A DNA stretch of 44,893 bases. Source: Catajapyx aquilonaris. Taxonomy: Eukaryota. The DNA lies in assembly GCA_000934665.2 (NCBI GenBank), contig JYFJ02000819.1:62001-106893 (forward strand). The letters are read 5' to 3'. Below, in pieces: positions 1-44,893 of the stretch. How positions within the stretch are numbered: position 1 is the first letter of the stretch; each line of letters starts with the position of its first letter. The position numbers and the translations under genes were made by a program. The notes under the pieces are model-generated. The model was given only the letters and a program-made list of their open reading frames with translations, searched no databases and was not told the DNA's origin.

Positions 1-1005
1 CACTCTCTGCTTGATTTCCTCCTTCCTCTCCCTGTACGCTTCTTTCAGCTCTTCTTTGCGCTCCTGGTATCGCTCCTTCAGGTTCTCCTTCCTCTCGCCA
101 TATAAATCTTTCAGGTTTTCTTTCCTCTCCTCGTACATCTCCTTCAGCTTCTCCTTTGATGGGATGGGCTTGATGTAACCCCAATCTCTCAAATATTTGA
201 TCGAGACGGTCGTTCCGCCTGAAAAAAATTCAGTTGTTAGTTATCGTATCCGCCGATGCAAATAACAGGTTACAAACCCAATGTGACGATGTATCTGGCT
301 GGAGTTGCAAGCTTGTACAGAGCAAACATCACGGCAAGATGTCCAGCTGCCGAATCTCTTATCGGATCGACAAACTTGTCCGGCAAGCCTATGTACTCCA
401 ATACTGGTACTATGTCGAATCCTCTGGAAATCAACAGGAATTAATGAATATTACATTTTACATCAATTTAGAGCACATTAAATTCCGATTGCAGCAGGAT
501 TTTGTGGCTAACTTATCTCAGGAAGTAAGAGAGTGAAAATATTTGAAGATTGCGTACGTCTTCGCCACGTAGTAGAACGTCCCAAACCAGATGACCGACG
601 TGAAACAATGCACTGGTACGAGGACATACCAGTACTGCTTATACATTTGTTTAAACCGCTGGAACAACGTCATCTTTTCTACCGGTAGGGAATCATCCTG
701 GTCTGGCTTCGGATCATTCTGACCGCCTTTGGTAACAAACTGCCGGGAATGAATGGGCGTCTGGCATGTGACCGGCAGAAGAGGCGCCATCTGACACAAC
801 TCGCATCTCATGCGGAGGTCACGTCTTGAGTATACCGGATCTGCAAGACACACGTTAATATGTTACGGTGTGCGCATGTGTATGGGGGCAACGTACATGA
901 GGAGGTCCTCCAGCGTGGTCCGGCTGCTGCGGTGGCTACGACCCATCCTTCCGGTGCTAATAGAGATGTCCTTGCAAGCCTGGCAGACAGACACAGCAGG
1001 TTCAT
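1..1005 (-). CDS. FAM210A: FAM210A-like (DUF1279) mitochondrial membrane protein, 3'-truncated by the window edge; exons 1005-897, 840-558, 423-278, 218-<1
   Basis: GT-AG introns (841-896, 424-557, 219-277) give one continuous frame. It reads MNLLCLSARLARTSLL (Arg-rich, presequence-like) ... LFQRFKQMYKQYWYVLVPVHCFTSVIWFGTFYYVAKTGFDIVPVLEYIGLP ... AGHLAVMFALYKLATPARYIVTLGGTTVSIKYLRDWGYI, then a K/E-rich coiled coil. These match the FAM210/DUF1279 signature motifs. An acceptor AG at 1009-1011 implies an upstream non-coding exon. Confidence 0.9.
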
Positions 1006-19781: not shown

Positions 19782-20132
19782 GGACAAAAATTCGAACCAT
19801 TCAAAGCCATTTTTTCTCTCTCGAAGAGTTGGAAAAGTGCATTATGATCAGACTTGTGGAGATTGACTGGATATGAGTGATTTCACAGCTTCATTTGAGT
19901 TATTACTCAGGCTTCTGCTTGCAACTGATGAGTGATGTTCACACTCGTGAGTTTGCTCGTTTCCTCCAGTGACCTCGGCCAGTGACCTTCCCACCCTCTG
20001 ACCCTTTTAAATCCTGTCCTGGAGCGACTAATAGACCACAACTGGCAAGGTCGCTCGTGATCAGATGCTGTCGAAATCGGGCGGACTGCTGTTGGTATGG
20101 TTGACTGCAATGGAAGACGTGGAGGGCAAGGG

Positions 20133-23100
20133 TCATGCGAGCAGGTTGTAGACGACCCTCCTGAGTGCGGTGACCACCTCGCCCCTGAGCTTGGCCGAGG
20201 TGAGCAGCAGCACCACCGGGTGTACCAGGAACTCGCAGTAGACCACCAGGTCGCAGATGAGGATGGCCACAGGGTGCAGGACCCATCCTCTGAGTCCGAC
20301 CACCAGCATGGCAGGCAGGTAGAGGAGGAAGTGGCTGATGGTGATCAGGAAGGAGGTCAAGGCGCTCTTCTCCAGTCGGCGGTAGTCCAACAGACGGACG
20401 TTGGTGATGTTGTGCACTCGGGCCTGCTTCTTCCGGAGTGAGACCATCACCAGGATGTAGGCCACGGTCAGACCCACCAGTCCGGCGCAGTACCCGGTGA
20501 AGATGACCAGGAAGAAGGCCACGGGCAGATCGGGTATGCAGAGGATGATGGCCGGCTCGAACACAGCTCCGAAGCAGTAGGTGACCAGTCCTGCACACGC
20601 GAAGGACACCAGCCAGGTCAACACCACCAGGGCCATCACCAGCTCTATTCGAAGCAAGGGGTACCTTCCGATAGGGAGGCACGCGGCCAGGACGCGGTCA
20701 ACCTGAAGAAGAAACAATCACAAAAGAAAGGTGCGGGTCAGAACATCAAAATACGGCGGTTCTATAAATACTATAGTAGCGGACTCGTTGCCAAATTTTG
20801 GCAACACTGCCATGCAGTCCTCCACTTGGACGTAGTACGATATGCCACTACCAGTTGGGGCATAGGCCTAGCATAGGCTGTCCCTCTGCGCACTATTTCC
20901 GTGCTTAGCGGGAAAGTAGTACTATACATGCACGTTGGTGATGAGTCACCGCACGGACAAAGCCTACCAGGGTGCTACTTGTACAACCAGCGCGTTGAAA
21001 TGAGTCCCACCCTCTCTGACATCTATATGTCCTCTAATAATATTGCTGAACGGGGAAAGTGAAAACTATGGTAACTACTACCTAGGCGATGAGCCAACAC
21101 AGACATATAAACAGACAGACAGAATAAGGGAATTAGTAAATAGTATCGAAAAACGCGAAATGAGCGAAGCGAGTGCTTTTCTATACGCCTGCGCCTTAGA
21201 AAAATGCGGGCGAAGCGAAGGTTTTTTTAAAAGTCTTAACCTATTAAAACACAGACAATCACGCACCGTCACTCGCCGTCACGCATCGTCACGGACCATA
21301 TACAAGCGTGCCGTGTTCCGTCACGCCAACCTACTCGCCAAAAACTAGTGCTGGCTAGTCACCAACAACAAACTTATCATGATGATGTCATAATCAGTAC
21401 GCTTGTGGACAAGGTGAGATTGAGACATTTTACTATACCAATTTTATGCCTGCAGTTGCTCACTACACCTTACTGCTCACTATTTTGTCAATTAACATCT
21501 CAGCAGCTTCTTTGCAAAGTAAGAGATAAGCTGGTAGGTTGTAAACAATTATTCACTAGTTTCCACAGCCAGCTTTTTAAACATTTTTACTGCGGGTAAT
21601 TAAATAGGGCATAAAAATCTCGGCGGGTCATAATTTCATTAGAACACCCACTTTCTTTGAGAGCAGTCATAATTCTAGTCTGAAGACTACCCAGCTCTGT
21701 TGTATAGACCCGCAACCTCCGGTAGATTTATAGCACAACCTACACACCACAAAAAAAAAGTCCGCCTTTTCTTCTCTCGTGCCCCTGAATGACGCTTTCA
21801 TTTTGGCTCAAGGGCTTGTATTTTGAGGATTTTTGCCAGCTTGAGGACAATGCAAAAAATTGGCGACTCTTTTTTTTATGTGTGGGTGTATTTCCAAAGC
21901 CCTCTTTCAACTCCTGTGGTAACGATGTCATCCAGGCGAGTGTTATCATGGGAAGAACAAGGTAATCAGCAATGATCGTTTGATGTTATTTTATTCGACC
22001 TTGGATCCGGGCCAAAGGCAAGCTTCCCCCCGTATAAATTTGGGGGGAGGCTGTCGGAACATGCTCGTGTTTCATGGTCCTCGGAGGAATAATCAAAAAC
22101 TTTTTGTGACTCTAAAAAAGAGAGAGAGAGAAGGGCCAGACTTTCACCTGTGATGCGCAAAGTTAGGCCCAAGTAGGGCGAAAATTTTAGGACCAGTCTG
22201 CAGGGGACTATGGTGAATTTATGGACCAAACTTACAGTTCTAAACTTCCGGTGACGGTGTGTGACTTTTGCGCTTTGACAATCTGCATGACTTAATGAAG
22301 TCTTAAGCAAAATTAATGGGAGGAGCATGATAACAAAAGTGAACGCAAATGTTCTGTGCATTACTTGAATATATTCGACCTACCCCACTGTAGTGCCATA
22401 GTTTGATGGAAAAAAGTACCTCAAAGTATACGAAATCCTACAGTGTACTATGGTATTCTGAAAATGCTCCGCTAAAGCATAGGAACTATACATAGAACAG
22501 TAGAAATGCGAATAATTTCTATGGCACAAATTATTCGGCACAAGTACGATCTTGAGATTCTCGGGATTGCTCGTTAAATAAAATTGCGACGAATTAAGCG
22601 AAACGTGCTGCGATAATCAGCCAACGGAGCAGAAAATATTTTTAGGTAATTGTTCGGACGATAATGGCATCATTATACCTTCTCCTCTCTAATACTCGAC
22701 TATATCCAGTGAGCCGGCAGAATTTCTTGCGATTTCTCATTTCTCTTGTTCTTATCTCTAATTTTGGGGCTATGCACGAAATTTGCGACAAAAGGAGGTG
22801 AGACGTGATGCATGTGGCGCAGTCTAGACGGCAGCAGAGCTAGTGAGGCAGAAATTATTCGATAAAATGTCCGCCTCGCTTATGGCATTCTCAAACTTCA
22901 CTTGAGTTCTCTCTACTTGGAAACTGGAGCACACAATTCTACGAAGTGGTATTGTGCCAGAAATTTTGATGAACAAGCTAATTTTTTCTGTTAGAAACGT
23001 CGCAACTGGCTAGTTGATTGCTAAAGAAAGGCAAGTTGTGGACTACATTGAAAGGTCAAGTAGATTTCTGAAGTATCAATAACTTCTATTAAATCAAAAA

Positions 23101-26100
23101 AAAATATTAAAATCCTTCGTTCTATGACCAAAGCTTCCGATTGTCCCGCCGCGACACTTCCGATTGGCCCTGTCTGCGCCTGCGCAATGTCGTAGTAATT
23201 ATTCACTTTCTAGTCTCTCCAATAGTATAAAATGACCCAAAATTTTACACTAGTTGAAAATTCGCAATAGAGATTCACGTTTTGGTTTAAATATTCTTGA
23301 GAGGCTGACCTTGAGCATGATGACGACGAGCAGGTGCTGCCCCCAAAGGGCGACAGTGACGACGCTGGTGGCAGTGCAGAACTTTGATCCAAAGTTCCAC
23401 TTTCCTGCGGTGATGACCGCCAGGGGCACTGGAAGCACGAGCGCGGCTCCGACGCAGTCGACGATGCAAAGGTTCTGTATGAGCAGGAAGTTGACGGTAC
23501 GCAGCTTCAGCTCGTTGCGTCCGATGTTGAGTATGACGCAGATGTTGATGAAGAGAGCCGCAGCCATGATGATGGACACCAGGGCTATCTGAAGAGGCCG
23601 GTTGATCAAGGGCAATGGATCGCCAGCGTCGTGGTCGCCTGGGAGCGCCTGAAGGACCACGTTGTCGCGCTCGATCGCAACGACCACGTCGCTCGCGTTC
23701 AGACCGCTTATCACCGACGGAGGCTGTTGGGAGCGGAAAAAACGGAACAGTTGACAACAATGCATCGGACATGCCAATGACTGTGAATAAACATGTTAGT
23801 ATTAACTGTAATGCCAATTACCCTGTACGTAATGTAATCCGATAATTAATTTGCATTGTGGGATTTGCTTTCCCGGACCTAACAACAGATATATTATACA
23901 GCGTATCATACACAGCAGTACCATACAAAATGGTATTGTATTTGTTTAAAAATATATATGACTTGGGCAAGTGTGACGTGGGCATTTTTTTAGCAACGTG
24001 CAAAAGTGGTCCTTTGTTACCTTCTGAGAATGGAATATTATACAGGGGCTGAGAGCCCCCGATAATTCAAAAGAACTAAAATGAATTACCTGCAATTTGC
24101 TATTCGCTCCTCATTCTCATTGTATATTCACGTCACGTCGTCTGGAAAAAAAATGAGGGGGGTTTTGGTAGGCGGGTTTCACATCCGGTAATGATTATGC
24201 GCCATTAAATTCTGTTAGATTTTTTTTTTGCGAAACCCTGCAAGTTGCTGATCTCACCTGCAGGTTATTTGTTAGCATTATTATAGACCACATATTGTTA
24301 ACATCTTGCATTTTTTTAAACAAAAATGGGCGCTTTCACAAAAGATCAGCCGGTTTGAATAGAAGCAATAATAATGCCCAATATTTCCTTGTTGCTTCTG
24401 ATTGCTAGGGTGAACAATAAACTTCTCCCGGGCGTCACTATAGCCAGTGCTTCGTCCGAAATAATGATTAATTTTGTTAGATCACCATGACATACAGTAT
24501 ATCAAGGCTTGGAATGATGGATGTGGACTGATATCGACCTGAATATTTTGCAGGAGCAATTCATTAATCCTAAGTGGATATGAAAAAATTTATTGCGTAA
24601 TACTGTCGGGGGGAGGGGGGGACCCAGGGAGAGTTTTGGGCCACATTTTGCCCCAGTTTCGCACAAAAATAGTGGTCGATTTCTTCCATCTCACAGTTTC
24701 TACGTTTTTTTCTGTCAGAATTTAGAAGGTTATACGACAGAGGAAAAAAATATATATAAACCGACAAACAGTATTGCATGTTCGTAAAACAGGTTTTATT
24801 TAGGTGTCACAAGGGGAGCTGAAAACGCTGTCGTTTCCACTAATATCGCGTCTTGAGTTTATTGCTGACTTTTATTTTAGGCAGTTTTTCGAACCAGCAG
24901 CATGTCATGTCATAGGCCACCAATGCCTTTGGTTGAGTTATACTGCGTTGGAACCCTTTTTACTACCAGCAATGTCCATGTATATTTTGATGCTTCAAAA
25001 ACCAGGTACCGCACAGTATATGTCGCGTAAAAGCTTGTCAAGTATGAATCTGACAAAAGGGGGCTATCATTCGAGTCAGTTAAGTGGTTACTGCAGTTTA
25101 ATTCAATGCTTGCATAACATTATAAGGGTAACGCGTGCAATGGAAGCAAATGAAAATGGTTTATTCAAAAGAGAGAGAAATTATTATAATGCTGTTTTCT
25201 GATTGAGTACGGAAATATTGTTGGCAATCGCAATTTGAATCATTTCCTCGTTACTTAATGAAGAGTGTACCACCATGTAATTGGCATATTTTAAAACAAA
25301 TTTGTATTAAAATTTTCCTCCCAGTGCCTACGCATTCATGTTGTTCAATATACACGAACTGTTTTGTCCATTATTCCGCTCAGACAGGCGAGTAACGAAT
25401 TCTAATGGATGTGTTTGGAATTATGAATTATTGCAGCCGCATGTTCCAATTAATCGCGACATATATTTGTATTTAAAATTCTGGGTTTGATATCTCTTAC
25501 TGAGTGTTTGCTATTCACAAATACTGGACAGTAGGCATTATAATAATTTATTGAATACATTAGTCCATGTAACACACGACGTGCGTGTTGGAGCCAAATG
25601 AGACCACTTTATGCTCAGTGTGTACTTTTTGTTTAATTTGACGTAATTTTAATGGACATGTAGTGGATCAAATTTAATTATTTGCTACTATGAACACTGA
25701 ATACCGGTTATTTAAAAACAAATTTGAAAAGTTTATTTACTTGTATGTATACACTGTAAACCGCAAAATATTAAAAGAGCATCACTGAGTCTTTCATGGA
25801 ACATCAATTTTAATGCTCTGCTAATGCTCTTGTGATGCTTTTTAGCAACAAAAAAGCATCATAGGAATATTATCAGAGCATTAGAAGAGCATTAAAAATT
25901 GATGTTCCATGAGAGACTCACCAGTGATGCTCTTTTAATGTTTTGCTGCGGTTTACAGTGTACGCTATGATTAATCAGAAATAATCAGATGTACACCCTG
26001 TAATTTCAGTTCGTACAACTGGGCATATGTGTCTGACAGTTTGTAATAACTATTCAGAGTGCAAAAATCAGATATTTCTTTAATAGTGTTGATAAAACTG

Positions 26101-28157: not shown

Positions 28158-31146
28158 GGAAGCAGCGCCTCTGGTAGTTGGGAAGTGGAACTATCCATTC
28201 CCGAGAAAAATGCGATGACTTTTTTAGTATGGTATATTTTGAAAATAATTTATATGGACCTGAAAAGTTGCGTCATAAATTGCTGAGCACGAACATTTCC
28301 GCGAAAGGCAATTATACGTAGCACAGACTTATTACTTGCACTGTACTGTATATTGAAAGTGGCTGCTACAAATTAGTCCCACCTATTGTTTGCTTTTAGG
28401 GCCCTTTGATGGCCATTAATATTTGTCACGGACGGATCTGTACTCGGAAGTCAAACAAACGCGACATTTATCATGCCGTCACAGGGTGTGCCGGAAAAGT
28501 TTGACATTCACATAATTGTATCTGTCACTCGACCAAACTCATTAAGAAAATGTCAGGAGCATTCTGGCATCCTGTATAAACGTATACACAACTGCATTGG
28601 CGCCTTGCAGGTAGATCAATAGGAAAACCTTGCCCAAAATAATGTTTCAAAACTAGGACAATGGGCGAGCCTAGGGTTTTGGAAGTTTTGTACCGTAGCA
28701 ACAAGCCGTTATTAATTTTCGTTCTGGGAGATAGTATTTGTTGCTTATCCTGGAGCGGTTATTGTCTGGCCAAAAGCATGCGGCCTCTTTTGTTCCGGGC
28801 GCAAAATTGGGGGACCTGCCAAATTATGGATGAGTTTTAGGGCGGGTCGGAACTGTGAGGGAACGAATTTTGGAGAGGAAATGACGCTCGCAGGATGTCA
28901 GATGAGGGCAAAGGGAGGAGAGACCATCATCATCGTAATAACATGCGCAAAACCGCTTAGTAAGAGAGACCACATCTCGTCAAATCATCAGGAAGAGGAT
29001 GGATGGCGCAAAAGGAAGAAGCTGCAGATTGCCAATATTAATTTTGGCTCCCACGAATTATAATTAGGGATGAAAAAGCCAGTGCTTGTTGGAGACGATG
29101 GGGGCCGCTTTATCAATTCACAAAGGGAGTGAACTGCAATTTCCTCATGATGTTAACTATACAGATTGTTCACGCCAGTTTCCTTTACTTTGGACTCTTT
29201 ATTTTGGCAGGCACTGTACAAATTAATTGCGTGTAGAGTTGTTCATTAATTTTCCACCAAACTGATTTACAAACGACTGATAAATTTAGTGAAACTTTTT
29301 ATTCAAAAAAAAGTCGAAAAAGTAAAATCATCGGAGAGTAATATCATGAGTACAGTTTGGATGATGCGCAGTTTTTTGGGGGGCCATTACGTAAGCGCAC
29401 AGTTAATTTTGTGAAATTGTTTCCAGGTTTATTGCCTAATTTATGGAGGCATTACGACTCGGGTCGTAACTTCTGATACATTGTGACATGCGTTTTGTGC
29501 GAGCGTGCAGACTATATATTTTTAAAATGCATATACATAAGTGCTGCAGTGTTAAGTAAGAAGGATTTGAGCAATTACATCTGCAATGGTGTACGAATCC
29601 GAGCAATATTTACTAATTAAATCGGCATTAAAGTACGTGTCTGTTGGAAATATCCCAATTTCAATTTGGAAGATATCATATGATGGTGATTTAAGCGGAG
29701 ATTATGTTTGTGAAAAAATTGCTGACAATTCCCTGTGTTTGAGATCCAGTTCCTTTCTTCTCGTTTATATACTGGGTGTCAAAATATTACCTTCCGATCG
29801 CAGGAGCTGAAAGGAGCTCTCATCACAGTCCTGAATCTGAAAGGACTCAAATGACGTGATTTACGACCCGGAGCGACACCCTGGGCGGGCTCCGTCAGCA
29901 GAAAATTGCGCCTAGTCGCGTCATAATTGCAGATCGACACTTGACGCCCAATAATAATCCTTGCCTTCAGGGGGGGAGGGGGGGGGGGAAACCATTTTCC
30001 TTCAAGACTATTATCTCATCCATAGCCTCTGGGTCGATACCTTTTCTACCCACGATCCATCCAAACCCTCCCAAAAATAGCCCATCCAACCATCACCCCC
30101 AAAAAAACTTGGCGACGCCCACTTTTATTGATAACCAAAACTCTACCCCCCCTTCCACCTCCCCAATATTATTTTTTTTCCTGGTCAATTGTTAAAGTAG
30201 TGATGGTATGGCGTCAGAAGTCACGTGGTGTTAGTGTGGGTTCCCACCAATAACAAAGAGGATCGGAAACGTGAGAAGTGCAACATAATGTGCTGCACTG
30301 CGACAGGTTTTTCCGAGCTGTTATTATCGCAATAAAAAAAGAGAGCAGTGCATGAAAAGTTTTGTTTAAAACAATTTGCTGCAATACCAGCTGTTATGTA
30401 AGGTAGACGGTTTTAAAGTAGGACGTTGTATAGGAGAGCTGGCTTCACTTATTTAGTAGTTAATTTTCATTGCAGGCGCGGCTCTAAATGTAACCCACCT
30501 GCATTATGAATAGGAAGTGAAGTGGTGGAATCCAAATTAGACTCCTGCACTTTCAGTCTATAGACAACTGCACAGGAAAATGACTTTTTAGTCAGCCAGT
30601 AGTTGCCATTAGTCCTATAATGAGAGCATATTTATTTGGTTGAATATTGTGGCATATCAGTTACATCATTGGACATTTTTTTTTGAACGACGTCCTTCCT
30701 GCATGGTCCGGCCTTTTAAAAAAATTCGGCCTTCACGTGAGGCACGGCGTGTTTTTGGGGACTGGAATCGACTGGCCCGGTTTCGTGTCATGCGGAAGGA
30801 GGGCTTGGGACATAGGCCTTGACCCTTTAACCTGATGATCGGTTGGTCTTTTTTTTCTCTCTCTTCCGGGATCAGGTCGTTTCCGTCAGCTAGCATATCC
30901 AATGGGCTATCGGTGATGTGGACACAGCAAAGTGGAAGGGAAGGTTTACTGTTGCTGAGCAAACTCAGGGGATGTGCACAAAGTACAGTGATTTATTATG
31001 GTTTTCTTCCGCTTCTTCGCTCCTTCCCGCAGTTCAAAGAATGAAAAGTTACTGGCACCAATATGAAAAGAAACAACTGCGACATAGCGTCCTTATGACA
31101 ATTTAGTGAACGTGTAATCGGCACTGAGATTTTCCAATCTTGGTCA

Positions 31147-31947
31147 TCATTTATCGGATCGATGGGATGAGAGCTTGGTATTTCGGCCGTATATTCCTCG
31201 AACCTGTTCCGAATGGGCCTAACACGTAAATGCATTCCGAGGGCCATCCCAACCATGGAAGACTCTGAAGGCAAGAGGCGGCCAAAATTCCTCATCCGCT
31301 TATCAGCACCTATCATAACAACACAAAAAAGGGATGGATTTCTTGAGATGCAGAGCACCAGACTGTTACCTTTGTTTTCTTTTCATTTACTGGGGGTACG
31401 TTTTGCTTGAGTTTCTCCTGGTCCAGGTCACCTTCTTCCCATTCCCAGCCCTCAGGAGCTTCCTTCAGAATGAAGACGGGATTGAATCGGCTGTCCTTGG
31501 CTTGAAATGAAGTATATAGGGTGTTACATGGGGGTGAATTTTAAGAAATATACGTAAAAATTTATAAGATTGTTCTAAGGACAGACCTGCATATTCGCAC
31601 AACTCCTTGTGGCAAATGAGATTCTTGACCTGATCCGAGCAGTACAAGAGGGTCACTGTGGTTTTCCCAGTATGCTCCTGACAAGCTGGCAGGGGTGACA
31701 CCGACTCCTCCGCATATCAGGACCAGTTGCTCCGCAGGGTAGAGGCAAATCTGTCCCATCAATCCCTTGATTAGCTCATTGGAAGCGGCCATCACCCATC
31801 CAGCTTTGGAATCGCGAAGAAGACGTTCCAATCCTACAACAATAATGTCAGTTCATTAATTTAGATTATTGATCAAAATGCAACCATATCAGGAGCCACT
31901 CTTGTTGTAGTACCAGTTTCATTTTTATATCCGGCACCACCGCAAGC
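31147..31947 (-). pseudogene. Truncated, internally deleted pseudogene copy of ACAD/reductase fusion gene A
   Basis: It retains the 3' part of exon 8 (31947-31914), exon 9 fused directly to mid-exon 13 (…GQICLY-PA-EQLVLICGGVGVTP…), an intact exon 14 (31500-31370) and exon 15 (31309-31147). Exon 15 has a GGA->TGA stop and a 5-nt deletion. Exon 13 has a 4-nt deletion and a further small deletion. The introns still align with those of gene A. Confidence 0.92.
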
Positions 31948-32270
31948 CAAACAAATATGCGATGGTGTCGTCTAGCTTCCGATATTCGTCTAATATTGTG
32001 ATTTTAAGTGAAAATTTGTGAAGCCAAAGCATAGAGCCAGATGTGATCCTGTCACTGCCGATTACTTCGACACCGCACCTGTCAAGTGGGCCTATATACC
32101 CGGAAGTGACAGGGACAACGTGTCTCAGGTTGTTTTTGTTCTCAAGTGGCTGCACCTGACATAATAGAGGTGGAAACATTATAGACTGTGATAAGAAACC
32201 TATTGGAAAATTGCATGCTAAGAAGTAAGTGTAGACTGGGGTAATAACACAATAAATACTGGATTTATTC

Positions 32271-33733: not shown

Positions 33734-33941
33734 AAGAAGAACGCCAGAAGTTTCGTCTTTCAAGCAACTTGTTACACAACGAGAATGAGTATATAGGCCT
33801 ACTTTTGAAGGTCAACAAGTCATACATTAGTGTGTCACGCTTGTGACCCCTAATACAAACTCAGAAAAGACTGTCCAAATTAATCGCCAAGTTCCTTTGC
33901 ACAATCAAACATTTTTATTTACTCCTTGTTTTGTACTTTAA

Positions 33942-34068
33942 GGGCCGGTTTCACCGAGCTCAGTATATGATAAAACCAGGGTTCTTTCTCAAAATCCCTA
34001 TCTATTTGTATGGGATTTTCCTAAAGAAACCTGGTTTTATCATATACCAAGCTCGGTGAAACCGGCCC
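33942..34068. mobile_element. PIF/Harbinger-type (Tourist-like) MITE, 127 bp, TAA TSD
   Basis: The junctions read taa|GGGCCGGTTTCACCGAGCT ... AGCTCGGTGAAACCGGCCC|taa. The element is a near-complete palindrome. Confidence 0.9.
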
Positions 34069-34471
34069 TAAGTGTGTATTGGGAAGCTGTAAAAACTAAA
34101 TTAAGCTAAGAATTATGTAACGAGTCTGGTCCCTCCCTGCTATAGATATAAACAGAGGAAGGCGAAATAAAATTCAATTGATAAGGAATATGGATGTTAA
34201 CAGTCATTCCAGAAGTTTATAACAGATAATTAAACTCCCCCACCCACTCACACTATATTTAGACATAATACCTCCTCTTAGGAGATGGTTAGTAATAAAT
34301 ATTGCAAAATATTTGAAGCATATGTTTATTTGTGCGTGGAATGTGAAAATTGGGCACTACATTCTACATAATATGCTGCTCGATGTGCCTGATTACGTAT
34401 ACAGTATAAAAGTGATTAGAATGAAATCGGTGTTGAGATTTTTCCTGGATTTTTCCAAATGATCCTGATCA

Positions 34472-37400
34472 TCATTTATCGGATCGATGGGATGAGAGCT
34501 TGGTATTTCGGCCGTATATTCCTCGAACCAGTTGTGTTCCGAATGGGCCAAACACGTAAATGCATTCCGAGGGCCATCCCAACCATCGAAGACTCTGAAG
34601 GCAAGAGGCGGCCAAAATTCCTCCTCCACTTATCAGCACCTATCATAACAACACAAAGATTTGTTATTTAAAAAGAGAACGGATTTCTTATACGGTATAG
34701 AGCACCAAACCTTTGTTTTCTTTCCATTTAGTGGGGGTAGGTTTTGCTTGAGTTTTTCCTGGTCCAGGTCACCCTCTTCCCATTCCCAGCCCTCAGGAGC
34801 TTCCTTCAGGATGAAGACAGGATTGAATCGGCTGACATGGGCTTGAAATGAATTAGGGTGTTACATGGGGGTGAATTTTAGAGAAATGTACATCAAAAAT
34901 TTATAAGTATAAGGACAGACCTGCATAGTCGCACAACTCCTTGAGGCAAATGAGATTCTTGACCTGATCAGAGCAGTAGAAGAGGGTGACCTTGGTCAGG
35001 TCACGGGGGTTCCCCAGCATGCTCCTGACCAGCTGGATGGCAGGGGTGACCCCGACCCCTCCGCATATCAGAACCAGTTGCTCCAGGGTGTTCTCCAAGT
35101 ACTCGAATCCTCCGCGTGGACCTCGGAAGTCGACAGAATCACCTAAAAAAGGACAAGTCTCTAATTAACCAAGGACTTGTGCAGTGCAGTTAATTGTACG
35201 ACATGAACCTGGTTGCATTGACCTGAACGCGTTGGACACAAGCCCCGACCCTTCCAGCTTGGTGACAATCTCCAACTGTCCGTACGCGTCTGGGGCAGAT
35301 GTGGGCGAGAAGAATCTCTCCTGGTCTCTTCCGGACTCGGATCTGATCCTCATCTGCGATCGGTTTCCGATTAATGACGGGATATATTGCCCTTTGCACC
35401 TTGACCTTACCTGAACGTACTGGCCTGGCATGCATCCCAGGTGATCTGTGGAGTCTGGTAAGGCGAAAGTGAGCAGGAGAGTGTCCGGTGCACATTCGCT
35501 CTTCCTTATTAAATTGAGAGCCTTGTATTGCTCGGGGTGAAGAGCTGGCTTGTGCGACTGGCCATCGGGTGTCGTCATCACCTGACAAGGAAAAAAAATT
35601 TGCGAACATCATTATGTTTCAGGTGGTTAGTCGATAAAGATGCTGGATATCGCGATGAAATTGGTTCACAAATAGCACGTATGAAGAAGAAACATTATTT
35701 TATTTGGACTTACTTCGGAGACATAATGCGGAAGAGAGGTGTTGAAGGGATTGTCAAAATCGTTGGCGAGTTGATTTGAGGGCTGTTCCTGAGCCTTGTT
35801 CTGCTCCACCTCCTGCAGCATCTCCTTTGCCAATTTCTCCTTCTCGTCCAAGGTCATCTTTCGCAGTTCCCGATGAAGATTGGGGCGGTTCACCTTCCGG
35901 TCCCTGCAATAACAGCGCACCAAAAATATGTATAGCACATATTTCACTGAAACGGTACATGTTGTATTACGATGAGTCACTTTCGTAGTAGGCTATGTTT
36001 GAATCTTGAGTCTAATTTTGAGCGTTGACCATCCCTTTCGCATTTAAAAAGATGGTTGAATTAATTTCACGGAAATTTTTTTCGCATTTTGAAACTACTG
36101 TAACTTTTAATGTCCGGTTATTACCAAGTGTCGACCGATTCCAATCCATAGAGGCAAATCTGTCCCATCAGTCCCCTGACCAGCTCATTGGACGGACCCA
36201 TCACCCATCCGGCTTTGGCATCGCGAAGAAGACGTTCCAATCCTGCAAAAAAAAAGTCAGTTAATTCATTCAGAAGGCGATCAGAGTACAAAAATAGAAG
36301 GCGGCAGTCTAATACCCGTTTCATTTTTATATCCGGCACCACCACAAGCGTGTAGCATGGTTTCTGTTACATTGCTGCTGGTTTCGGCGGAGATGTACTT
36401 CAACAATACTGTCTGAGCCATGAATTTGGTCCTGAAGTTGAAATGCTCAAGTTGAACAATTGAGCATGCAGCCAAACTCTGTAGTCTTGGATTACCTGGG
36501 TTTGAAAGACCGGTCTTTGTATAGAGACCAATCGCAATTTTTTGTCTCCACGTCTATCTGGGCCGCGTAAGCATATAGGGTCATCCTGCTGGCCACAATC
36601 GAGCAGATGCTCTCTCCAAAGTATCCCTTTCAATTGAAAAAAATGCATTTCAATTGGCTATTAATTAGATGAAAAATTGAAACTTAATAAATCTACCTCC
36701 GGTAAACAAATCATTACAATGACAATAAGAGGATTATGTCTCTTCACAAAAGCGATGGTGTTGACAAGCTTACGATGCCCCAACGGACTATAGTGGTTGA
36801 ATTATTGAGAGTGACAGTCTATGAAGCCGAAGCATCGAGACAGATATGTGATCCTCTCACTATCAGTTACTTCCTCATGGAAAATAAACCTATACCTAAA
36901 AATGACAGGCACAACGCGTCTCAGCTTGTTTTTGTCTCCTGCAGCTGCAATAATAAACATAGTGGAGATATCCATGCTGTACGGTATAGTCCAAGGTATA
37001 GTCTATAAGCGTTATAAAACAAGAAATTGTTCAATGCATAAATTTAGGGCAAGGCAGTGCGAGGCAGCCTGCAACCGGTCATAACTGGTGCAGTAACGAC
37101 TTACTTGCACTACAGGGTAATCGCAGACCCTGAAGTTGTTTTGTCCGTGTGTCTTTGTGGTGACATGTCTCTTGGCCACGTCCATTGCGCCCAAGGCTAT
37201 TCCGTTGAAGCAAGCCGTGAAGAAGAGCATGGCCAACGGGACTAGTTGTTCCGAATTCTGGTCATCTCCAAGGCCTGTAGTCGTAAACCATTATTTACAC
37301 AATTACGTACCACCATGGTCAAACAAATAATTGCTGGTGTACATACCGACGCCTCCAATGATCCTGTTTCTTTCGAGGAGACCTTCGCAGACCAGGGGAC

Positions 37401-38687
37401 CAGACTGATTGCCCCTCATCCCAAGGGCCTCCCACTCATTGGCGTAAGTGCGGATCTCATCCTGTCAACAAGGATGGGGTTCAATGTATGTGATGTGATG
37501 ACACGTGTAGCTCGTTACCTTGAACATGAGGTAGAAGGTGGTACTGGCAAAGTCACCGTCCGAGTCAGGGTTTGAGCTGCTGACCACGTACCAGTCGGCG
37601 AACCCAGCGGAGGTGCTCCACTGGCCGTACTTCAGGAGACGAACGCGGTTCTCGTCCACCGTGGTGCACTTGGACGCCAGGGGAAACCAGAACTGACCGC
37701 CTGTCGGAAGCTTTGTTGAATTCGCGGTAATAATTCAGACAAACTTCCAGGGCTTTACTTGCCTGAGGCAGGATCGCTGAGACTTGATGTCCCGACGAGC
37801 CTCTTCTTGTCCAGATTCCTCAGCACGTCTTCGAACACGGGGTTGTCGTGATAGTAATTGAGCAGCAGGCCGCATGACATCAGGTGCATTGCTACAAATA
37901 AAATGCAATGAATGTCACATAGTTGAGGGAAATGTTGAATGGGAAAATTTTTTGTGAATTATTTTGCATGCCAATGCATTGTGGGACAGTACAATCAGGA
38001 AGGATTGAATTTTAAAAATATGTTTTGAGCTATACATGCATTTTTCACTATTAATTATGTAATATTGCCTCTAAGGTGTAAAGCTGAGCAAATATGGGGA
38101 ATGGGTTAAAATCACGCAATCCTAATTATTTTGATGAAAGGTGAAGAGGACATTAAGGAAGTAAGGAAAGCTGAAGCGGATGCTGTGTATTTATAGAACC
38201 TCTTATTAGCATTTCATTAGCATTTCATTAGTCTCGTATTACCGTATCTCATTTGGGAAAAAACCCTTATTATGTGACATTGCAGGCTATACTTACTATA
38301 GACCATGGCAGTGCTAGGGCAGCCATATCTGGCGATGGTTTCGACAGCCATGCAAACCCCCACGTGGTTCTCTCCTCTTCCTCCCAACTCTTTAGGCACC
38401 AATATTCCCAGCAAACCCAGGTCGGCCATGGCGTCCAAACTGGGTCTGGGGAATTTGCTCGTAGCATCGCACAAAGGCTGGAAGATGAGCTTGCTCTATA
38501 ACACTACACGTGTGCAGTGTATTACACTCTCTTATGATAAACAACTCACGGCATTAGGCCTGATGACGGTGCGGCAAAGCTCTTTAATATCCTCCTGCAG
38601 CTTCTTCTGGTCCTCGGACAGGAACCATCCTGGTTCTAACTCGGGTCCTAAGCCCCAAAACTCCTTCTTGGGTTTACCCGAATCCAT
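34472..38687 (-). CDS. ACAD-fold + cytochrome-b5-reductase/FNR-like fusion protein, gene A (768 aa, 15 exons)
   Basis: Exons are 38687-38550, 38477-38297, 37891-37763, 37700-37519, 37461-37347, 37274-37105, 36626-36496, 36431-36316, 36242-36125, 35903-35714, 35581-35411, 35353-35209, 35142-34921, 34841-34711 and 34639-34472. They total 2307 nt and are open throughout. ACAD motifs: GLLGILVPKELGG, ETIARYGCPST, SLSDPASG, KYGQWSTSAGFAD, LGMRGNQSG, HACGGAGY, ERLLRDAKAG. Reductase motifs: LGCMPGQY, ERFFSPTS, GLVS, FRGPRGGF, ICGGVGVTPAIQ, APEGW…G. Confidence 0.93.
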
Positions 38688-40101: not shown

Positions 40102-43100
40102 TTAGTATCTGGAAGTGTGAGAGGACAGTTTGGCGTTGCTTCCATATACGCCTCGCACCAGTTGAGTTCCCAGAGGACCGAAGATGAATATGGAATCCGA
40201 TTTAAATCCAAGCTGGCGTAGACTTTGCAGGCAAGATACGGCCAATGCACTGCCTCCACATATCAGCACCTAGAAAATGCAAAAAAAAAGTTTCGTAAAA
40301 TGACATCGGTTTTGGCGTTTATCCGTAATATTTTTCACAAGAGAGCGGAAAGGAATTTCACCTTATTTTTGGTGTCGGTGGACAAGTGCATGTTTCTTCT
40401 TAACACGTCCGAATCCAAGTCACCTTCTTCGTAAGACCATTCTTCAGGTGGCTCTCGAAGGATGAACACTGGGGCAAAGCGGCAATCCTTCACTGGAATT
40501 ACAGGGTGTGCTTGTTTACAACTATTTTAACTAATTAAACTATACATGAACATGATCATACGCAAATATGAACCTTCATAGTCACACAGTTCTTGATAGG
40601 AGATTAGGTTGTCCACGTAGTCTGAGCAGTAGAAGAGTGTCACCTTGGTGATATCCTGCGGGTTATCCATGACTGTTCTGATTAGTTGGATGGCCGGAGT
40701 GACCCCGACCCCTCCGCATATCAAGATCAAATGGTCCAGAGTATTTGCTTCGTACTCGAATCCTCCACAGGGACCTCTGAATTGTGCCTTGCTACCTGTA
40801 ATCAACATCAATTAAGATTCTAATTTGGCACAATAAGATGGTGGACCAGACCAGGTTGCATATCCTTTAAGGCTTTGGACACCAGTCCCTGTGCCTCCAG
40901 TTTGGTCACTATTTCTAGCTGTCCGAAAGAATTCGGAGGGGAAGTCGGAGAGAAGAATCGCTCTTGGACCGTTCCTTCCGATGATATCCGCATCTGCTCA
41001 ATAATATACAGTTTGTACAGTCAAGGTTTCAATTTTTTAGTTTGATCATCGGTTACCTGAATGTATTGGCCAGGAAGACATCCGAGGTGATCCGTGGCAT
41101 TGGGAAGTGCGAACCTGAATTTGAACGTGTCTCGGGCGCACTCGGATTTGGATATAAGAGGCAGAGACGTGTACGAATCCGGATTCAGGGCCGGTTCATG
41201 GTCAGTTCCATCCCCAGTTGCAAATATCTGCGAAAATATTTAGTCGCTCAGGAAAATGGCCTGAACATGAACTAATGTGCAAATTCCTGAAAAATCATTA
41301 ATATTTATGATTACCTCTTCCCAGTGCTTGGGAGGCTGTGTGTTGAACGGGTTGTCAAAATCATCCTTCGAAATTGGTATTTTGTCGCCTCCTTTTCGGT
41401 CATCCACTTCTTGCAGGATGTTTCTAGCCACAGCCTCCTTCTCGGATAATGTCATCTTGCTCAACTCTCTGTACAGGCTCGGGATATGAACTTGGTTACC
41501 CCTGCATTTATAATAATTATATTTATGTTATATGCGAGTTTTCCACGTCTTCATTACCATCTGTCCACTCCGTCAATCCCGTACACACACATTTGGCCCA
41601 TGAGTAACTTGATCATTTCGGATGATGGCCACATCAGCCATCCGGCTTTGGAATCGCGAAGAAATCTTTCCAATCCTTTCATATAAATATGATAAATTAT
41701 TATGCACAATTTTTAAAAAACTAAAAGTTAGCTACCAAGGTCTCGCCTGAATCCGGCACCTCCGCAAGCACGAAGCATTTTTTCTGTCACTTTACTCGAA
41801 TTTTTTGCAGCAATAAATTTGGCGCAGGATGCTGACGCAACGTATCTGGAACTTTTAACATACTCCTGGTTAATTATTTTGTATCTTAATCCTGCTGGAC
41901 GAGTGTTCATTACCGTGGTTTGTAATTCGGGTTTTTGTACAGAGACCAGTCGCATCCATTTGTTGCTTGGTTCAACATCTGGCAGTAAGAATAGACTGTT
42001 AATCTACTTGCCATTGTGCTGGATATGCATTCTCCAAAGTATTCCTGGCGGGGAATAAATGAAGGGTAATAACTCACTTGTACTTTCAATTTATGCGATT
42101 GTGAGTATACCTGAACTAACGGGTAGTCGCAAACGCGGAATCCGTTCTGTCCATGAGTTCTGCTGGTGACATGTCTCTTTGTCACGTCCATTGCCGCCAT
42201 TGCGATTCCATTACAGCAAGCTGAGATCATTAGCATTGTTATTGACATGTTGACATTCTCCATACCACTTGTCGTGCCTGTCAAAATATCATTACAATAA
42301 TTAGGTTTTTAAGATAGCCAGAGCAGCAGCAGCAAACTTACTCAGCCTGCCAATAATCCTCTCTTTGTTCAAGACTCCTTCACACACTACTGGACCTGAC
42401 TGATTTCCTCTCAAACCAAGAGCTTCCCATTCGTTGGCGTATGTGCGTACCTCGTCCTAAAATAAAATGCATCAATATGAAACTGTACACTTTACACTAA
42501 TTAAAATGTGAACCTTCAGGAGCAGGTACACGGAGGTACTGGACATGTCACCATCAGCGTCTGGACTTGCGCTTGTGATCACGTACCAGTCGGCGTACCC
42601 GGCTGATGTGCACCACTGCCCGTACTTCAGGAGCCGGATATTTTGCTCGTCCATAGTTTGACATTTAGATGAGAGTGAAAACCAGAACTGCGATCCTATT
42701 TTAAACACAATCAGGTAATTAAATGAGACGGATTTGAAGCCGAACTGACTGCTTACCGGTAGCTGCATCGTTCAGGCTTAATGTTCCGATCGATTTGGTT
42801 TTGTTCAGATTCTTGAGTAAGTCTTGGATGAAGGGATTGTTGTGGTGAGCCTTCAGTAGCGAGTTGCATGCAGCCAAGTGCATAGCTAAAATTCATATCA
42901 GGCAATCAGATATCTGGTTGAAATATTGTGTACCTGTACTTACTGTAAACCATGGCGGTGCTGGGGCATCCGTACCGAGCGATTGTTTCGACTGCCATTG
43001 CCGCTGCCACAATGTCTTGGCCCATCCCTCCAAGTTCTTTTGGAACCAGAAGACTCAGCAGACCCATGTCTGCCATGGCGTCCAGACTGGCTCTTGGAAA

Positions 43101-43319
43101 CTGGCTGGTGCGATCGTACTCGTCCTGAGAAACACAGAAATATATTAAGAGCCGTGCATCACCTTCTAAGTATTGAATTCTTACCGCATTTGGTCTGATG
43201 TGGTTGTGGCAAAGCTCGATGATGTTCCTCTGAAGCGTCTTTTGCTCCGAGGTCAGCAGCCAACCCGGGTCGAACTCGGGACCCAAACCCCAGTGATGAT
43301 GTGCCCAGCCGTTCTCCAT
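40102..43319 (-). CDS. ACAD-fold + cytochrome-b5-reductase/FNR-like fusion protein, gene B (764 aa, 15 exons)
   Basis: Exons are 43319-43185, 43124-42944, 42885-42757, 42695-42514, 42456-42342, 42277-42111, 42044-41914, 41851-41736, 41675-41558, 41501-41315, 41227-41057, 40993-40852, 40795-40574, 40492-40362 and 40269-40102. They total 2295 nt and are open. All 14 intron positions and phases match gene A, and 11 of 15 exon lengths are identical. Confidence 0.93.
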
Positions 43320-44330: not shown

Positions 44331-44893
44331 TCACGGTCCTGATTGATGAGACGATAGTTTGGCACTGTTCCCAAACACAGCTCGAACAAGCTGAGACCCG
44401 AAAGGTCCGTAGATGTATATAACTTCCGAAGGCCATCCGAGCCATCGAAGGCTTTGCAGACAGGAAGCTGCAAGTGTCGTCCCTCCGCTTATTACCACCT
44501 GAAAAATCCACAGTGAAAAATAAATTATTACATAGAATGAGCAATTGTGTAAAATATTTCTTAACAAGTTCCGTTTAGTCACGGACTACACTTTCATTGT
44601 CTGGTAGTATATCCTGATTGCTTGACAATATTATTATTGTTATACTGTATGCAATGCTACATATACATACACTGAATCACTGCATTTCCCCAAAATGGTA
44701 AATCCTATCTTGGGAAAATGCCGTGATTGGTATGCGTATGATGCCTATTTCAAGCAGGATGGCGAACCTTCAACTTCCTGTTCGTGTGACGTTTCGATCA
44801 CGATCTTTCTGCAGGGGAAATACTGTGGTGAAGTGTGCAGGAATATTTTACCTTCACCCTTGAAGATATTCCTGGAAGATATTGCTTCATTTT
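44331..44893 (-). CDS. 3' end of a third ACAD/reductase fusion paralog (gene C); exons >44893-44852 and 44498-44331
   Basis: The last exon is 168 nt, as in A and B, and encodes VVISGGTTLAASCLQSLRWLGWPSEVIYIYGPFGSQLVRAVFGNSAKLSSHQSGP*. The upstream exon end KMKQYLPGISSRVK|gtaaaa matches exon 14 of A. The ACAD part is outside the window, so the fusion is assumed. Confidence 0.85.

Follow-up and report, generated by a model that had tools for sequence, protein, structure and literature searches.

A spliced fusion of a glutamate-less acyl-CoA dehydrogenase fold with a cytochrome b5 reductase-type module as a candidate amine oxygenase of animals

The window, by which we mean the whole stretch of 44,893 nucleotides analysed here (G000:C324:62001-106893 in a 286-Mb assembly; window coordinates are used throughout), raises the question of what an acyl-CoA dehydrogenase (ACAD) domain does when both of its canonical catalytic glutamates are missing and a monooxygenase-like motif is present, as the initial annotation reported for positions 36125-37274. 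This region represents exons 6-9 of a spliced minus-strand gene (gene A, 34472-38687), the 15 exons of which encode 768 amino acids in an open frame with one terminal stop. Exons 1-5 are located at 38687-38550, 38477-38297, 37891-37763, 37700-37519 and 37461-37347, exons 6-10 at 37274-37105, 36626-36496, 36431-36316, 36242-36125 and 35903-35714, and exons 11-15 at 35581-35411, 35353-35209, 35142-34921, 34841-34711 and 34639-34472. Pfam matches on single exon stretches (Acyl-CoA_dh_N, a weak ACAD C-terminal match, FAD_binding_6 and NAD_binding_1) place an ACAD fold, a helical linker and cytochrome b5 reductase-type FAD and NAD(P)H domains in one chain. The ACAD fold is assigned from such matches on the exons of genes A and B (see below) and from models of the homologs P0003 and P0004, not of A or B themselves. 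The AlphaFold model of a lobster fusion (pLDDT 90, pTM 0.90) matched both ACADs and cytochrome b5 reductase.

The gene models of A and B were built by joining exons, separated by short introns, by coordinates and were compared with contigs of X1, one public run with no library type on record, in which uncovered parts are uninformative. The X1 contigs skipped 13 of the 28 introns of A and B exactly at their GT-AG ends, including 8 of the 14 introns in A, with the acceptor of exon 2 and the GC donor of intron 3 of A being predicted only. This GC donor (intron 3, 37762-37701) is outside X1 coverage and is required both for the frame and for the match to the GT intron of B. The fusion junction corresponds to intron 9 of A (221 nt, 35903-36125, minus strand), which separates the last ACAD exon from the linker exon. 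An X1 joint (35902/36124) crosses it and reaches 41 letters into the ACAD side; the pieces listed for the 1207-nt X1 record with this joint (record 1) continue through exons 10, 13, 14 and 15, the last being the final reductase exon. The fusion thus exists in spliced form. The reductase module of A (34472-35581, minus strand) contains the RFFSP and GGVGVTP motifs, and that of the homolog P0003 matched Physarum cytochrome b5 reductase 2eix with an E value of 1.4e-44, a target TM of 0.91 and 33% identity. Contamination was considered as a source of the locus and was ruled out by 14 introns per gene, the spliced joints and the existence of several paralogs.

A second gene with the same intron phases and 60.6% identity to A, gene B (40102-43319, minus strand), encodes 764 amino acids in 15 exons with one terminal stop. 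X1 contigs skipped 5 of its 14 introns, and one joint fixed the start of exon 8 at 41851. Given that 240 of the 439 codons for residues identical between A and B differ, the pair fits long purifying selection on both genes. A third paralog is represented by a portion of its last exon (44355-44471, minus strand) and probably continues on contig C3241 of the same assembly, which carries two copies on the same strand, and the last 267 nt of the window correspond to C3241:95-360 at 97.8% identity; this overlap suggests a four-gene tandem array. Further fusion copies were found on C1500 and C5867, and the C5867 copy, being nearly identical to one of the two on C3241, may be its allele. The 3' half of A also has a decayed partial duplicate (31137-31950, minus strand), two pieces of which are 80-86% identical to A at the DNA level and in which sequence resembling exon 9 passes into sequence resembling exon 13. 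Between this duplicate and A lies a short palindromic repeat (33940-34075) that has high depth and many variants in X1 and is possibly a small mobile element. The sole FMO-like match found in the genome (G000:C364:12924-13460; one match from three candidates, a lower bound) compares with at least five fusion copies. By resemblance, window positions 1-862 (minus strand) presumably hold a FAM210-like gene, and 19900-20720 and 23250-23820 (both minus strand) two rhodopsin-type GPCR-like frames.

Among the matches listed (the best 120 per search), fusions of about 770 amino acids occur in decapods, stomatopods, amphipods, an isopod, krill, barnacles and an ostracod, and outside crustaceans in the annelid Owenia, the brachiopod Lingula and the corals Acropora, Montipora and Desmophyllum. 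Freshwater and land crustaceans are among the carriers, as are corals. In bacteria the ACAD part stands alone as a protein of about 467 amino acids (family X) that is 51-62% identical to the animal domain, and the best 80 of 289 X loci span Alphaproteobacteria, Acidobacteriota, Gemmatimonadota, Latescibacterota and others. A and B share 43-52% identity with family X over about 435 columns and possess its N-terminal WG..WD..W extension as well as the C-terminal RDx[KR]AxxxMx[PL] motif. A tree built by a quick method split 25 bacterial from 35 fusion-group rows at an SH-aLRT of 95, with very long outgroups that make its root unreliable, and placed A and B on a long stem branch (0.82). Relatives carry automatic names only in the ESM Atlas and are labelled ACAD9-like, YngJ-like or cytochrome b5 reductase in databases. 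Searching with a stretch of B that included an intron yielded no proteins of greater length.

The catalytic base of ACADs is a Glu of either the MCAD-type C-terminal loop or the IVD-type helix G, and an Arg of helix G binds CoA. In the HMMER alignment, the C-terminal motif of A, RDAKAGWVMGPSNE (36225-36184, minus strand; R394-E407), positions G403 in the MCAD-type Glu column behind the invariant M402, while that of B, RDSKAGWLMWPSSE (41658-41617, minus strand; R392-E405), positions W401 there, in agreement with the Gly and Trp replacements first proposed. This register is one in which the VMGP of the family aligns with the IYEG/IFEG of the solved ACADs 3pfd, 2dvl and VLCAD. For helix G, the family VDPFF is placed opposite LDHTR of 3pfd, which corresponds to LDYER of isovaleryl-CoA dehydrogenase 4kto. 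The IVD-type Glu and Arg columns are accordingly occupied by L262/A263 in A (helix G E257-C270, 37210-37251, minus strand) and by I260/T261 in B (E254-C268, 42216-42260, minus strand), confirming that neither the Glu nor the CoA-binding Arg is there. The register of helix G in B is uncertain by one residue, yet Glu, Asp and Arg are all missing from residues 255-262. A keeps the family Glu at E257, while the D, F and W pocket residues of the family are replaced.

These losses extend to the family, defined here as the 218 of 372 proteins (48 long and 170 short) covering the domain at 38% or more identity to P0004. None of the 218 is acidic in either Glu column and 212 of them match RDx[KR]AxxxMx[PL], indicating that the loss of both Glu columns is not due to chance. 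The MCAD-type column holds G or A in all 218 proteins, as opposed to W401 in B, and the helix-G Arg column holds F or A, with Arg absent throughout. Two other glutamates had been considered as stand-in bases, and the alignment places neither in a catalytic column. The Glu of SNE sits four residues after the base column, where 2dvl and 4m9a also have Glu, and the Glu of NSEQ in helix G sits five residues before the IVD column.

The helix-G Glu is, however, conserved in 216 of the 218 proteins and kept in both A and B, and it could speak for a non-canonical acyl-CoA dehydrogenase with a different base, in which electrons would reach NAD+ via the fused domain. Classical ACADs are also the top matches by sequence and by fold. 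Moreover, the cyclohexene-carboxyl-CoA dehydrogenase 7p98 possesses no Glu in either column, keeps the helix-G Arg and acts on a CoA ester according to the available part of PMC9293079, so a missing Glu alone is no proof of a monooxygenase. By contrast, the helix-G Arg that 7p98 retains is absent from all 218 family proteins, every ACAD equivalog score is far below its cut-off (197 vs 600 for the best), and the annotated conserved neighbours of X include no CoA ligase, hydratase or ETF, with a CoA-transferase in one locus. We consider such a dehydrogenase very improbable. The proposal that the domain is not a classical acyl-CoA dehydrogenase, and that its substrate may not be a CoA ester, is supported by the family-wide loss of both bases together with the helix-G Arg and by bacterial orthologues that travel with a flavin reductase and a TMAO demethylase.

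The monooxygenase-like reading of the C-terminal motif held in part. The motif itself is a family feature, in the 212 proteins counted above, and it is predicted to mark the flavin chemistry of the family rather than its substrate. By contrast, a special closeness to the nitrososynthases KijD3, ORF36 and DnmZ was not borne out, as these rank below classical ACADs by both sequence and fold. DnmZ reached a Z of 33.4 (rank 25) compared with 44.4 for an IVD in the fold comparison, and KijD3 an E value of 2e-11 compared with 2.5e-23 for 7p98 in the sequence search. None of the three appeared in the top five of the searches aimed at aligning the C-terminal motif, and a search of the PDB with the 22-residue motif gave no match. 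We take the invariant Met column of the family to be the one in which many group D hydroxylases place a hydroperoxide-stabilising His. For XiaF, the available text of PMC5481743 gives His371 as the hydroperoxide-stabilising residue, and ACAD-fold N-oxygenases without the Glu do exist, ChmG and KijD3 being described in the accessible portion of PMC10849742.

What the family might oxidise was approached through the genes around bacterial X, with representative neighbours named by NCBIfam and Pfam. In the 80 X loci, Tdm is found in 46 (33 of the 45 loci of at least 15 kb), a flavin reductase (PF01613) in 45, Tmm in 3 and DmmC in 1. A whole-genome search of 50 carriers from these loci matched Tdm in all 50 (47 over the cut-off), and Tmm and DmmC in 4 each. 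We then examined two samples of 401 genomes each. In the first (the class of G006), Tdm was present in 33 genomes and X in 9, 8 of which also have Tdm; among the 33 Tdm genomes, Tmm was detected in 0/8 carriers and 15/25 non-carriers (p 0.004, or 0.008 without the centre genome), where this p value and those that follow ignore phylogeny and are optimistic given that carriers are possibly close kin and genomes partly incomplete. The second sample (the order of G015) contained 84 genomes with Tdm, 80 of which were tested (G015, G012, G389 and G574 were left out), with 10 carriers of orthodox X and G718 (54% identity) counted as a non-carrier. In 9 of these 10 carriers, X and tdm are no more than 25 kb apart. 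By contrast, tmm is located within 25 kb of tdm in none of the carriers but in 54 of the 70 others (p 3e-6). A Tmm-family gene anywhere in the genome was found in 7/10 carriers, unlinked in each case, and in 63/70 others (p 0.11), and the strict genome-level exclusion between X and Tmm that the class sample had suggested fell with this result.

In the clusters of G740 and G609, X is immediately followed by a flavin reductase gene and then, in order, by tdm, a dmmD-like gene, dmmA, dmmB and dmmC, with tmoP divergent. This order, combined with the linkage results, indicates that X and its reductase fill the tmm slot in a cluster that already holds the dimethylamine step. It also bears on the possibility that the family takes over the following step from DmmDABC, with dimethylamine or an N-hydroxy intermediate as the compound oxidised. 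That proposal gains from the scarcity of DmmC (4 of the 50 carrier genomes, 1 of the 80 loci) and from the gap at the dimethylamine step in marine bacteria that the available part of PMC5520151 describes. However, dmmC is clustered with X in 9 of 10 carriers of the order sample, the full dmm set is present in the two mapped clusters, and the class sample showed no exclusion of DmmC (1/8 carriers vs 8/25 others, p 0.39). X as a replacement of DmmDABC, the first idea, was therefore dropped on the order-sample linkage and the G740 and G609 clusters, and we regard action at the later step as quite unlikely. Oxidation of trimethylamine to TMAO is, by contrast, a likely reaction for the orthodox family as judged from gene context, and it is this trimethylamine link that carries most of the functional evidence.

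Several other features were observed around X. Divergent bacterial paralogs (59% identity) have no tdm in their 1.5-kb flanks, and one of two genomes gave no Tdm match; in L086 and L087 this subfamily lies beside cupin-like, PhyH-like and SAM-decarboxylase-like ORFs, labels that were read from translations. Many X clusters contain an atypical GmaS-like ligase (300 bits vs a cut-off of 470) and an atypical MgdA/SoxB-like oxidase (L044:2837-4369 and L044:12229-13590), and L050 has a canonical GmaS in addition to the atypical one. In clusters lacking dmm, these two atypical genes could represent a dimethylamine route not yet described. A histidine ammonia-lyase-like gene is near X in 12 of 80 loci and a desaturase-like gene in 16 of 80 (L021:4066-6718 and similar loci), both possibly encoding trimethylamine-releasing enzymes. 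A conserved protein of about 198 amino acids without a Pfam or NCBIfam match (L008:13397-13993) occurs in 19 of the 80 loci.

Taken together, these data indicate that the proteins are not classical ACADs and that their mode of action is most likely like that of group D monooxygenases, with the reductase fused. In the mechanism we infer, the C-terminal reductase would use NAD(P)H to supply reduced flavin, which would react with O2 in the ACAD-fold domain to give a presumed C4a-hydroperoxide, and oxygen would then be transferred to the nitrogen of a small amine. The reducing step would be performed by a separate flavin reductase in bacteria and in cis by the fused module in animals. Electrons could instead flow otherwise, with the family acting as an NAD(P)H-dependent reductase (of N-oxides, for example) or as a flavin-linked amine dehydrogenase whose reductase domain would serve as a relay, in either case without O2. 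An ACAD fold with an NAD(P)H module is compatible with reduction, acryloyl-CoA reductase is among the NCBIfam matches, and the motif column has no conserved His. Nevertheless, TMAO reduction or bypass would starve Tdm, which is matched in every one of the 50 carriers, and the partner in bacteria belongs to the HpaC/HsaB type of reductase, which typifies two-component monooxygenases, leaving this scheme rather unlikely. That A and B are single-chain flavin-dependent heteroatom oxygenases and not dehydrogenases is a reading we favour with moderate confidence; counted against it are the 46 of 50 carriers without DmmC, the best structural matches being ordinary ACADs, the unlinked Tmm-family gene in 7 of 10 order-sample carriers, the Met in the presumed His column, the flanks of the divergent bacterial paralogs that lack tdm, and the departures of A and B described next.

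A and B depart from the family at the presumptive pocket. The His following the DP..G loop, on helix E (H109/H108), is invariant in 218/218 relatives and is Gln in both A and B. The helix-G D/F and helix-I W/W/Q pocket residues of the family read V/A/Q/V/L in A and N/T/S/S/C in B. The invariant His is retained in other paralogs of the genome, as are W and Q in the C3241/C5867 copy. Since conserved pocket residues were lost, the substrate of A and B may differ from that of the family. The same losses could also mean that, within a family of oxygenases, at least one of the two window copies is degenerate or non-catalytic, with B the stronger suspect: Trp in B occupies a position at which all 218 relatives have G or A, the stem branch is long, and a decayed copy lies nearby. 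We consider degeneration unlikely because each of the two 15-exon frames is uninterrupted and spliced, the flavin-contact columns (W, T, D and RD..M.P..E) and reductase motifs are kept, and codons have diverged at identical residues as described above. As oxygenases, A and B would more likely act on other amines or sulfides, or broadly in an FMO-like manner, than on trimethylamine alone, and it is doubtful that either makes TMAO.

The bacterial relatives occupy the usual place of a trimethylamine monooxygenase, and the animal fusion is therefore probably a candidate for a second animal route for oxidising small amines. We tentatively put forward a broader scenario, in which an FMO-independent TMAO synthase ranges from corals to crustaceans, an ACAD-fold N-oxygenase shared with bacteria acquired its cytochrome b5 reductase domain by fusion before cnidarians and bilaterians diverged, and the tandem family of this locus acquired new substrates and may replace FMOs. 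Bacterial conversion of trimethylamine to TMAO is assigned to Tmm in the available text of PMC13390433, and TMAO synthesis in amphipods to FMOs in that of PMC9511220. As the fusion also occurs in corals and in crustaceans of fresh water and land, it cannot serve an osmolyte role throughout, and given the amphipod FMO proposal such a role is put forward as a hypothesis only. No description of family X or of the fusion was found in the accessible literature searched, and supplementary gene tables could mention X. If the proposed reaction is correct, a second, unrelated enzyme would exist for trimethylamine oxidation to TMAO, and bacteria with X would be missed by surveys that count tmm. Animals would possess an ACAD-fold monooxygenase with its own reductase, and a direct candidate would be at hand for the making of TMAO, an osmolyte tied to depth, in crustaceans and other invertebrates. 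The ACAD9-like, YngJ-like and cytochrome b5 reductase annotations would then be wrong.

How the family relates to known systems can be summarized by comparison. The Tmm/FMO3-type trimethylamine monooxygenases (class B FMOs) share with it the proposed reaction and the slot upstream of tdm. By contrast, their fold is unrelated and Tmm reduces its own FAD, whereas X needs a reductase; PF00743 and NF058570 gave no match on the window exons, P0003 or P0004. The Rv1679/FadE16 family (NCBIfam NF049984) is the best family model for P0004, at 197 bits vs 87 for the next, although this score is far below the 600-bit cut-off. The C-terminal module resembles NADH-cytochrome b5 reductase and the FAD domain of nitrate reductase, but is placed behind an ACAD fold and carries RFFS instead of RxY[TS], with a Lys or Arg near what we assume to be the site of the NADH-selecting Asp of cytochrome b5 reductase. 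With classical ACADs (MCAD, SCAD and IVD), which are the best structural matches (Z up to 44.4), the family shares the three-domain fold and flavin-contact motifs. It differs from them in having neither catalytic Glu nor the helix-G Arg, and in its N-terminal extension, helix-I insertion, C-terminal linker and reductase fusion. In the available part of an overview of group D enzymes (PMC6165268), natural fusions are mentioned for group E only and the string 'eukaryot' appears nowhere. The two-component flavin monooxygenases of group D (C2-HpaH, HsaA, DszC/TdsC and XiaF, and the N-oxygenases KijD3, DnmZ, ORF36 and ChmG) have the ACAD fold (Z 33-37) and no catalytic Glu in common with the family, as well as the HpaC-type flavin reductase that lies beside the bacterial X gene. 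The family differs from them in its low identity (about 14-21%), in the Met instead of His in the C-terminal motif, in the fusion of a cytochrome b5 reductase-type reductase in animals, and in a proposed substrate that would be a small tertiary amine.
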